Of a stretch of 64,000 bases of DNA, positions 23,552 through 25,085 are shown in pieces. The translations under genes were made by a program, and so were the position numbers. Origin of the DNA: a phage. The notes beneath the pieces are model-generated. The model searched no databases. It saw only the letters and a program-made list of their open reading frames with translations, and was not told where the DNA came from. Position 1 is the first letter of the stretch, and each line of letters starts with the position of its first letter. The stretch lies in the sequence record PQ724394.1. One strand, 5' to 3'.

Positions 23552-24106
23552 TCAGTTCTTGTAGAACCGGAACGGGTTCACGTGGAAGGCTAACATAGCT
23601 TTAGGGATTTTACGAGACAAAAGGCTCTTAAGCTTCCATCCACAGTACACGCGAAGGTAAAATGTGATTCCGCCGACCTTAAGATAAGGAACTGAAGCAA
23701 ATACACCCCAGGCATCATCATTCCACATCCATAACCAACCATGGTGGGCTTTATCAGGAGAACCTGATTCTACGTCAGGATTGCCGCGATAATGGAATTC
23801 TGAACTACAATCACGTCCTAGTTTATGATAAGCAAAGTTATAAGCTTTATTTCGCCATAGCCAAGCTACTCTCTGGAGATAAACACCACCAGGCATTTTC
23901 CTGATTTTAGCCCAACGTTTAATATGACCTTTATCGCCGTCAATTGGATTATCGTATGTCATCATCCAATCAAAACCGTATGGCAATTTACCAGTCTTTT
24001 TATTGTAGAAAGGAACCACAAAAGGCGCAAGGATAACAGCCAGAACCATAGAGATAAAATCTAGTGGGACCAACAGAATCCAACTCAAATATTTTAAAAG
24101 TTTCAT
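23552..24106 (-). CDS. membrane-anchored hypothetical protein (184 aa)
   Basis: N-terminal TM helix WILLVPLDFISMVLAVILAPFVV; flanked by two near-identical terminator/late-promoter modules. Confidence 0.5.
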   Translation of the reverse strand: MKLLKYLSWILLVPLDFISMVLAVILAPFVVPFYNKKTGKLPYGFDWMMTYDNPIDGDKGHIKRWAKIRKMPGGVYLQRVAWLWRNKAYNFAYHKLGRDCSSEFHYRGNPDVESGSPDKAHHGWLWMWNDDAWGVFASVPYLKVGGITFYLRVYCGWKLKSLLSRKIPKAMLAFHVNPFRFYKN

Positions 24107-24140: not shown

Positions 24141-24141
24141 C

Positions 24142-24169
24142 AAAAAAGGCCCAACCTTTCGGAAGGGCC
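24142..24169 (-). terminator. rho-independent terminator downstream of tRNA cluster
   Basis: Minus-sense GGCCCTTCCGAAAGGTTGGGCCTTTTTT; near-identical to the copy at 23519..23546. Confidence 0.6.
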
Positions 24170-24180
24170 TTTAACCTAGG

Positions 24181-24482
24181 GTAACCTTGTCGGGGTTCCA
24201 CCTGCTAGGCAAGTGTTTGTACGAAACGCCGGGATTCGAACCCGGTTATTAAGCAGTTGACGCTACTCAATATTTTTTTAAAAGGCCATATCTCGACCAT
24301 ATCCGAACGTTCCGTCAAAAACGCTACTCGGCTTACGGCAAAGATATTTCCTCGAATCGATAATTCGATGCGCCGTTTCAGCTGTGATAGTAAAGAACCA
24401 GAACACAGTAAAACTGTGGGAGGAACTATACTCCAGGGAACTTCAGTCCGACGACTTACCGGTAGCGACCCGGTTTCTTGTT
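24181..24482 (-). ncRNA. candidate structured stable RNA(s) or degenerate tRNA-like elements adjacent to the tRNA cluster
   Basis: No credible ORF; contains canonical T-arm-like CCGGG-TTCGAAT-CCCGG and several hairpins but no complete cloverleaf by hand. Confidence 0.25.
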
Positions 24483-24558
24483 TGGTCGAGACAGTAGGGA
24501 TCGAACCTACGACCCAGGACTTAGAAGGTCCTTGCTCTTCCTTCTGAGCTATGCCTCG
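24483..24558 (-). tRNA. tRNA-Arg (anticodon TCT)
   Basis: Hand-folded cloverleaf: acceptor CGAGGCA/TGTCTCG, anticodon loop CTTCTAA, T-arm GTAGG-TTCGATC-CCTAC, encoded CCA. Confidence 0.7.
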
Positions 24559-24562
24559 TATT

Positions 24563-24637
24563 TGGCGGACATGCATGGATTCGAACCATGGACCAATTGA
24601 TTAACAGTCAACTGCTCTACCGCTGAGCTACACATCC
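24563..24637 (-). tRNA. tRNA-Asn (anticodon GTT)
   Basis: Hand-folded cloverleaf: D-arm GCTC/GAGC, anticodon loop CTGTTAA, T-arm CATGG-TTCGAAT-CCATG, encoded CCA; acceptor stem has two G-U pairs. Confidence 0.6.
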
Positions 24638-24641
24638 GAAT

Positions 24642-24715
24642 TGGTGGCCCTGGGTGGAATCGAACCACCATCCAGCGATTATGAGTCGCTCGCTTGACCG
24701 TCCAGCTACAGGGCC
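24642..24715 (-). tRNA. tRNA with CAT anticodon (Met or lysidine-modified Ile)
   Basis: Hand-folded cloverleaf: acceptor GGCCCTG/CAGGGCC, anticodon loop CTCATAA, T-arm GGTGG-TTCGATT-CCACC, encoded CCA. Confidence 0.7.
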
Positions 24716-24800: not shown

Positions 24801-25085
24801 TTAAAGCATATTAATGTAATCAAGTTTAATAGAAGCAATCTTCAAAGGATTTTTAAAGATGTCGTATTCGACCAACCCATTTTCATTTGCCGTATAAAAA
24901 GTAAAGTTAACAGAATTATAGCGTTGGCTGTTAACTTTGAGTTTAACATCGCTTGAACTACGGCCAATATTAACCTGTTGAACATCAAGCACAGCATCTT
25001 TGCCGTAATTTCGAATCAACAACTCAGCTGCAACCTGATCGGATTTATAGCCATTCTCTGGATTAGTAACCTTAACGTATAACAT
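24801..25085 (-). CDS. hypothetical protein (94 aa)
   Basis: ORF between tRNA cluster and ipI-like region. Confidence 0.45.
   Translation of the reverse strand: MLYVKVTNPENGYKSDQVAAELLIRNYGKDAVLDVQQVNIGRSSSDVKLKVNSQRYNSVNFTFYTANENGLVEYDIFKNPLKIASIKLDYINML

Follow-up and report, generated by a model that had tools for sequence, protein, structure and literature searches.

We analyzed a cluster of transfer RNA (tRNA) genes and the structured stretch beside it at positions 24181 to 24715 of a 64,000-nucleotide (nt) stretch of phage DNA (PQ724394.1), here called the window, whose numbering is used throughout. Read along the minus strand, the locus is composed of tRNA(CAT), tRNA-Asn, tRNA-Arg, rnaD, rnaC, a 3' trailer, and a terminator (Table 1), and it very likely represents the standard tail of a T-even tRNA operon, a tail that was present in all T-even-like phages examined. 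The element is already known: the stretch downstream of tRNA-Arg holds the orthologues of rnaD and rnaC of phage T4, beside a tRNA set that is typical of the clade. The two small stable RNAs of T4 have been described since the 1970s.

Table 1. Features of the tRNA-rnaD-rnaC locus and of its flanks
Feature	Position	Strand	Description
rnaC homologue (T4 species 1 RNA), 141 nt	24220-24360	-	Near-identical to T4 rnaC; covariance model R1, 156.5 bits
rnaC acceptor-like stem, 7 bp	24359-24353 with 24228-24222	-	CGAUUCG/CGUUUCG, two invariant U.U pairs
rnaC long rod P2-P3, about 24 bp, irregular, 70 nt	24352-24283	-	Loop UUGACG at 24318-24313
rnaC hairpin P4, variable-arm-like	24272-24247	-	Loop CGUCAA at 24262-24257
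rnaC T-arm-like hairpin, 5 bp, 7-nt loop UUCGAAU	24245-24229	-	CCGGG-TTCGAAT-CCCGG
rnaD homologue (T4 species 2 RNA), 115 nt	24367-24481	-	Boundaries from T4 and RB5
rnaD 5' hairpin H1	24474-24458	-	Alignment A4
rnaD closing helix	24455-24449 with 24375-24368	-	GUCGUCG with CGGCGCAU (CGGCGCA.); alignment A4
rnaD apical tip hairpin	24418-24404	-	Within the swappable apical domain on the inner helices
tRNA CAT	24642-24715	-	ARAGORN; RF00005, 62.6 bits; CCA encoded
tRNA-Asn (GTT)	24563-24637	-	ARAGORN; RF00005, 71.0 bits; CCA encoded; annotated identically in MN04
tRNA-Arg (TCT)	24483-24558	-	ARAGORN; RF00005, 63.8 bits; CCA encoded; last of the cluster, as in T4
3' trailer, about 47 nt	24173-24219	-	CAAACACUUGCC.AGCAGGUGGAACCCCGACAAGGUU..., between rnaC and terminator
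Intrinsic terminator	24141-24172	-	G+C-rich hairpin AAGGCCCUUCC-GAAA-GGUUGGGCCUU, then U run; predicted fold
Flanking open reading frame	23552-24106	-	phrog_2143, 184 aa, conserved phage protein, predicted membrane-like N-terminus
Flanking open reading frame	24801-25085	-	phrog_2023, 94 aa, conserved phage protein

The region matched 785 phage records, nearly all of T4-like phages (Tevenvirinae) of enterobacteria, and the top full-length match was Escherichia phage MN04 (Dhakavirus JS98), at 94%. A more sensitive search with positions 24150 to 24482 as the query returned 812 phage records, 680 of which covered at least 80% of the query, and in RB5, RB55, and ATK47 the matched sequence is annotated as rnaC and/or rnaD. 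In T4 (NC_000866), the annotated order is tRNA-Arg, rnaD ("species 2 RNA," 119 nt), and rnaC ("species 1 RNA," 139 nt), and RB5 has the same gene order. We aligned the window with T4, RB5, and MN04 (alignment A1) and carried over the boundaries of rnaD and rnaC from the T4 and RB5 annotation; the tRNA-Arg of the window fell at the position of tRNA-Arg in T4 and RB5. In this alignment rnaC was near-invariant, whereas rnaD was kept in its first 45 nt or so and its last 25 nt or so, with a different middle. The onset of rnaD lies 1 to 2 nt past the CCA of tRNA-Arg, and a 6-nt spacer separates it from rnaC. The sequence-only reading had proposed that the 300 nt downstream of the tRNAs might contain tRNA-like stable RNAs, and the orthology to the annotated T4 genes bears this out.

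In T4, transcription runs through the whole tRNA cluster and stops after the species I gene, and the primary transcript is a precursor of the tRNAs and of the species I and II RNAs (PMC2330249). Both rnaC and rnaD of T4 have been seen as late RNAs by Northern blotting (PMC9697503). A literature search found no functional study of rnaC or rnaD. Rfam 15, searched at the gathering threshold and then at E values of up to 10, contained no family for rnaC or rnaD. Its matches were all at chance level, among them one to tRNA-Sec (16.9 bits) and one to BjrC68 (21.4 bits) that covers the trailer and terminator. Besides, no homologue of either RNA was found in 5,426 Escherichia coli genomes or in a plasmid collection, and on this observation rnaC and rnaD are phage specific.

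We characterized the structure of rnaC using an alignment of 32 distinct copies (alignment A3) from Tequatrovirus, Mosigvirus, Dhakavirus, Winklervirus, Karamvirus, Kanagawavirus, Moonvirus, and Marfavirus and from IMG/VR and metagenome contigs. Without guidance, RNAalifold returned 39 pairs from this alignment, 22 of them compensatory, which form a terminal stem, an irregular rod, and a hairpin 5' of the T-arm-like hairpin. When a loop-loop helix was included, 98.6% of the alignment cells were paired, compared with 35 to 48% when the partners were slid, and double changes were seen in 23 of the 44 pairs; for four of the five measures, no shuffle came up to the value observed. The acceptor-like stem changes from A-U to G-C in 17 of the 32 rows, and the T-stem changes from G-C to U-A in 15. 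Folded alone for minimum free energy, the window copy adopted the shape of the comparative model (-50.2 kcal/mol, z = -4.13 against 200 shuffles). Thus, the earlier suggestion that the stretch is structured held, and the CCGGG-TTCGAAT-CCCGG motif that had been singled out in it is present as the T-arm-like hairpin of rnaC. The RNA ends in an encoded U-ACA tail. On this comparative model, rnaC is a mimic of a tRNA and not itself a tRNA, in which an acceptor/T-arm stack and a variable-arm-like hairpin are present and the D and anticodon arms are missing.

The apical loops of the rod and of P4 are exact complements, and the helix between them is 100% paired in alignment A3. In six Marfavirus rows the two loops read UUGGCG and CGCCAA, an A-U to G-C change on both sides, and this complementarity together with the co-variation indicates a kissing interaction. 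At the rnaD/rnaC junction (24353-24367, minus strand), a possible hairpin, CGAAU-UAUCG-AUUCG, would sequester the 5' strand of the acceptor-like stem in the precursor; it occurs in the window and MN04, and, because it is imperfect in T4 and absent in other genera, it is probably incidental.

A covariance model built from alignment A3 (R1) found one copy in the window. At scores of 16 to 21 bits, R1 detected, besides true rnaC, only genuine tRNAs aligned end to end, the best being a class II tRNA-Ser at 20.8 bits. Of the simpler sequence patterns, a loose one, TTCGAGGAN{4,6}YTTN{15,40}TTTGACG, gave mostly chance matches, and a tighter three-block pattern performed well on viral contigs, while about two-thirds of its metagenome matches were G+C-rich chance matches, on which R1 scored nothing.

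ARAGORN made a fourth call in the window, a 97-nt "tRNA-Phe(aaa)" at 24219-24315 on the minus strand, and a "tRNA-Stop(tta)" at the equivalent place in another copy (L013:980-1073). What the former takes as its acceptor 5' strand, CGGAACG, forms the 3' side of hairpin P3, which co-varies, and its "anticodon" lies in an A/U linker prone to insertions and deletions (indels), so that it reads aaa here and tta in L013; the call is therefore an artifact. RF00005 did not match this call or rnaC even at an E value of 10, the tRNA-Sec match being the only one (gathering score, 47). A hand-made pairing of the rnaC 3' end with the same internal CGGAACG was dropped for the same reason, since CGGAACG co-varies inside P3, and the true partner of the 3' end is CGAUUCG at the 5' end, with which it co-varies from A-U to G-C. 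ARAGORN found no transfer-messenger RNA (tmRNA), and the sole tmRNA-type Rfam match (14.5 bits) fell on the tRNAs and not on rnaC; likewise, the sole match to the YrlA/bacterial Y RNA-like family RF02553 (26.9 bits; gathering score, 69) lay at 24607-24677, on the tRNAs and not on rnaC or rnaD. Annotation of T4-like genomes thus goes wrong here repeatedly, with a false tRNA called within rnaC and, in many records, hypothetical proteins drawn across rnaC and rnaD. In Erwinia phage Virsaitis27 (Winklervirus), the position of rnaD is taken by an uncalled element of about 75 nt (L004:1427-1501; GGGAGUU...CAGCUCCC-A-CCA) whose ends form a 7-bp stem and whose T-like arm is odd, directly followed by rnaC; this element may be a degenerate or noncanonical tRNA.

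For rnaD, we aligned 20 distinct copies (alignment A4), from which RNAalifold predicted 25 pairs, 11 of them with compensatory changes, comprising H1, the closing helix, a short inner helix, and a stem carrying a swappable apical domain. In this fold, 96.6% of the cells were paired, compared with 33 to 51% when the partners were slid, and double changes occurred in 11 of the 25 pairs. The closing pair of H1 appears as A-U, G-C, and G.U, and in the copy from a phapecoctavirus H1 also shows a C-G to A-U change and the closing helix a G-C to C-G change. These data give moderate support to a conserved fold of rnaD's own. Two hand-drawn elements, a small hairpin (AGUC-GUCG-GACU) and a helix (UGAUG/CAUCA), were set aside as unsupported or no better than the pairing of GUCGUCG with the 3' end returned by RNAalifold.

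The apical domain of the window type was present in about 150 phage records. Furthermore, rnaD-like copies with the window's apical hairpin lie between tRNA genes in Phapecoctavirus 536P1 (L007:1499-1613) and Certrevirus POP17 (L140, about 690-790), and a partial rnaD-like copy lies in the tRNA cluster of Mosugukvirus PM2 (L139, about 700-830), all of them without rnaC. Since elements with the same apical hairpin occur in the tRNA clusters of two unrelated phage families, rnaD appears to have moved between families, probably as a module passed on horizontally.

A published evolution experiment bears on the same apical hairpin. When the T4-like phage BW-1 was evolved on E. coli ECOR34, a single nucleotide polymorphism (SNP), described as a "T-C transition" at position 164264, was common to three of three lines, and virulence (RBG) increased from 0.17 to 0.98; the SNP was assigned by the authors to rnaD, where they saw no clear structural effect (PMC12685909). 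The deposited BW-1 genome (OR125554.1; L213 position 315) has T on the plus strand at this site. In the RNA, CACAG-UUUUA-CUAUG, the site corresponds to the A of CUAUG, so that the apical hairpin of rnaD contains a C.A mismatch. A T-to-C change on the plus strand gives CUGUG and restores a C-G pair. The window carries this sequence (G24406 pairing with C24416), as do the remaining copies of its type that were read. The exact 41-mer of BW-1 was found in 5 of 150 records. From these coordinates we infer that the SNP repairs an rnaD helix, a restoration on which the authors did not remark (PMC12685909). If this is true, the helix would matter on some hosts and not on K-12.

The three tRNA genes were called on the minus strand, with the anticodons CAT, GTT, and TCT that had been read by eye, by both ARAGORN and RF00005 (gathering score, 29 bits), the latter matching each over its full model (positions 1 to 71). 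The 4-nt spacing also stood, the spacers being 24641-24638 and 24562-24559, so that the genes are packed as in a polycistronic precursor, and Asn is indeed outside the T4 set, which is annotated as Gln, Leu, Gly, Pro, Ser, Thr, Ile, and Arg. That the complement is unusual was overstated by the sequence-only reading: the annotation of MN04, SP18, and ST2 lists an identical trio, tRNA-Met(CAT), Asn, and Arg, that of PhAPEC2 lists Met, Asx, and Arg, and RB5 has ten tRNAs with Asn included. Among the related loci fetched, the T-even sets ranged from 2 (CAT and Arg-TCT) to 11, with CAT and Arg-TCT in every one. Because the sets of relatives vary in this way and the same trio is annotated in some, the complement differs from that of T4 yet is ordinary for the clade.

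The labels of the CAT tRNA conflict, since its T4 counterpart at the equivalent place is annotated as tRNA-Ile, whereas those of RB5 and MN04 are annotated as Met. In an alignment with E. coli tRNAs (A5), its acceptor GGCCC and anticodon stem-loop GCGACUCAUAAUCGC aligned with ileX, and it lacked both the three G-C pairs of the initiator and the hallmarks of elongator and initiator Met tRNAs. As a lead drawn partly from this alignment, the CAT tRNA is probably of the Ile2 type (lysidine, AUA reading) and less likely Met. AUA and AGA are rare codons in E. coli, and in the long open reading frames (ORFs) of the window they occur at 10.0 and 6.3 per 1,000 codons, respectively, so a role in codon supply fits; most plausibly, the tRNAs would supply AUA, AGA, and AAY decoding for an A+T-rich genome. 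Tyr, His, and Asn, whose anticodons are all of the QUN type, are among the tRNAs gained or lost from one T-even genome to another (L010, L201, L197, and L012). Anticodon nucleases of the colicin E5 type target such tRNAs. This targeting might, speculatively, bear on the idea of an anti-defense role for the phage tRNAs.

In T4, RB5, and MN04, the trailer beyond rnaC matches rnaC in its degree of conservation, and it is kept in IMG/VR copies, although it belongs to no annotated feature; it is probably removed in 3' maturation. The terminator that follows ends the tRNA-rnaD-rnaC transcription unit and was missed by a simple terminator scan because of its internal U.U pairs.

Several other explanations of the 300-nt stretch were weighed. 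That it encodes one or more small proteins, as the "hypothetical protein" entries of many GenBank records would have it, deserves hardly any credence. It does hold ORFs of 123 amino acids (24205-24576, minus strand), 96 amino acids (24257-24547, plus strand), and 42 amino acids (24278-24406, minus strand), several records annotate coding sequences (CDSs), and phrog_28391 matches 22 residues; however, the 123-amino-acid ORF reads through tRNA-Arg, indels of 1 or 2 nt in an A/U run separate the copies (two A more in the window and one T fewer in L013), and the substitutions are paired across helices and not codon-like. Besides, the PHROG match joins the last 22 amino acids of this ORF to positions 1 to 22 of a 54-position profile, so the frame is not kept, and the curators of T4 and RB5 annotated RNAs here, not CDSs. 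The earlier view that the stretch has no credible ORF is thus upheld, and a tag-peptide or small-ORF reading of rnaC also fell away, because the indels break every frame. It is very improbable that the stretch instead consists of decayed tRNA genes, pseudogenes that are drifting and have left the T-arm-like motif as a remnant, as the sequence-only reading had alternatively allowed. The two ARAGORN calls, the weak tRNA-Sec match, and the cloverleaf-like, CCA-ending element at the rnaD position of Virsaitis27 could be taken in this sense. Against this, rnaC is almost invariant across genera while the adjoining tRNA set varies from 2 to 11, and the compensatory changes keep helices that are not those of a tRNA; the calls themselves rest on a strand of P3 and an indel-prone linker, RF00005 is silent, and the T4 RNAs accumulate as stable species (PMC9697503 and PMC2330249). 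The orthology to T4 rnaD and rnaC, with non-tRNA helices kept by compensatory changes, dismisses ongoing decay, although descent of rnaC from a class II tRNA is possible.

The paired loop sequences of rnaC, TTGACG and CGTCAA in the DNA, could in principle be an inverted repeat bound by a dimeric protein and not an RNA kissing loop, since the sites are inverted and 52 nt apart and the Marfavirus double change would fit a shift in dimer specificity. We consider this extremely improbable: both hexamers coincide exactly with loops of RNA hairpins, the stems of which co-vary independently, the RNA accumulates in T4 (PMC9697503), and neither a likely DNA-binding protein nor a regulatory setting is apparent. 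Unlikely, but deserving more weight, is the view that rnaC and rnaD are cis-acting scaffolds for processing or termination, which would help RNase P or RNase E to mature tRNA-Arg and shield the 3' end of the operon, their stability being a by-product. In every case the two occupy the 3' end of the operon, past its last tRNA and ahead of the terminator, the conserved trailer suggests ordered 3' maturation, and in Karamvirus and Winklervirus rnaC-like elements lie directly between two tRNAs. Nevertheless, a CDS of about 360 nt splits tRNA-Arg from rnaD in several T-evens, so adjacency to a tRNA is not required. (Such genomes had been taken to carry rnaD and rnaC without any tRNA gene; this was wrong, as ARAGORN finds tRNA-Arg about 360 nt upstream, on the far side of the inserted CDS.) Moreover, a scaffold would have no need for invariant, mutually co-varying loops, rnaD-like copies that lack an rnaC partner are found in unrelated phage families, and the adaptive change of BW-1 lies in the apical hairpin, far from the processing sites.

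Judging from the T4 literature and the anatomy of the locus, the tRNAs, rnaD, and rnaC would share a single transcript that extends to the terminator, rnaC would be cut out by the tRNA-processing machinery of the host (RNase P for the 5' end and trimming for the 3' end), which would recognize its acceptor/T minihelix, and the compact folds would make rnaC and rnaD stable. We tentatively favor, as a possibility short of an even chance, that a protein of the host or the phage is bound by both RNAs, which would serve as structured ligands or decoys, with a benefit that depends on the host. A ligand or decoy is preferred over an antisense RNA because rnaC and rnaD have almost no conserved single-stranded sequence, and host dependence is suggested because the sole convergent BW-1 mutation for growth on ECOR34 repairs a pair in the rnaD apical hairpin. 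The more specific proposal, that rnaD and rnaC are host-range RNAs, that is, trans-acting, protein-binding decoys that titrate or neutralize a strain-specific host factor, is more doubtful. Under it, rnaC would be a tRNA mimic locked by its kissing loops and showing an acceptor/T minihelix and a double-stranded RNA rod, whose target could be a nuclease aimed at tRNA ends or shape, or RNase III, and rnaD would be an independently mobile module with its apical hairpin as the active surface. If true, such an active hairpin would explain how the repair of one base pair gave BW-1 full virulence on ECOR34, and the mobility of rnaD would explain the same variant in the tRNA clusters of Phapecoctavirus and Certrevirus.

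A number of observations weigh against these proposals and the models beneath them. The boundaries of rnaD and rnaC in the window rest on transfer from the T4 annotation, and the function of both RNAs was called unknown in 2010 and again in 2022 (PMC3014915 and PMC9697503). The kissing loops co-varied in just one evolutionary event, within one clade, and their co-variation is compatible with intra- or intermolecular pairing. As for tRNA mimicry, the acceptor-like stem contains two invariant U.U pairs, and the encoded tail is U-ACA and not U-CCA, which is found in Marfavirus only. Some genera have UGCAUGC or UGCAUC instead of the T-loop UUCGAAU (L008, L016, and L004) with the stem kept (A3 columns 123 to 129; window 24240-24234), and, because this sequence varies between genera, recognition specific to the T-loop cannot be essential. 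The single-sequence fold of rnaD is no better than that of shuffles (z = -0.97), and the direction of the BW-1 change was taken from the wording of the paper and the deposited ancestor base, not from variant tables.

As a genome feature the locus is routine, and its interest lies in the long-standing question of what rnaC and rnaD do. The co-variation-backed structure of rnaC with its predicted loop-loop contact offers a handle on this question, and the published adaptive mutation that would repair an rnaD helix and the rnaD modules that appear to cross phage families offer further ones.

Compared with T4, the window rnaC (T4s001 in T4) has the same position, after rnaD and before the terminator, and is 141 nt long versus 139 nt, with four differing columns in alignment A1, including an A run longer by 2 nt (AAAAAAA in the window linker versus AAAAA); the window also has U.G where T4 has U-A at one P4 pair and C where T4 has U opposite a P2 mismatch. 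The rnaD genes (T4s002 in T4) share the 5' 45 nt, with H1 and GUCGUCG, and the 3' portion ...CACAGC.GAAACGGCGCA, whereas the apical domain of the window (about 24440-24385) is a different, nonalignable set of hairpins; in addition, T4 has CCA after GCGCA (CACCA), which the window lacks (CAUCG). Beyond the T-evens, the pRNA of phage phi29 likewise carries two hairpin loops in one small phage RNA that are complementary and co-vary, as in rnaC. The phi29 loops pair between molecules to form a ring on the packaging motor, and the RNA has no sequence or fold similarity to rnaC; we know of no requirement for RNA in T4 packaging. The tRNA-like domain of tmRNA resembles rnaC in that both termini of a longer RNA come together as an acceptor/T-arm module, from whose junction a long helix departs, and in that an anticodon is missing, although rnaC differs in having no G3.U70, no tag frame, and no series of pseudoknots and is far shorter, at 141 nt. 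Unlike class II tRNAs (Ser, Leu, and Tyr, and also tRNA-Sec), rnaC has a 70-nt rod in place of the D and anticodon arms, two U.U pairs, and an ACA tail, and it fails RF00005. With these tRNAs, however, rnaC shares a 7-bp stem stacked on a 5-bp hairpin with the 7-nt loop UUCGAAU and a long hairpin 5' of the T-arm; R1 weakly cross-detects tRNA-Ser from end to end and tRNA-Sec is the best Rfam match of rnaC.

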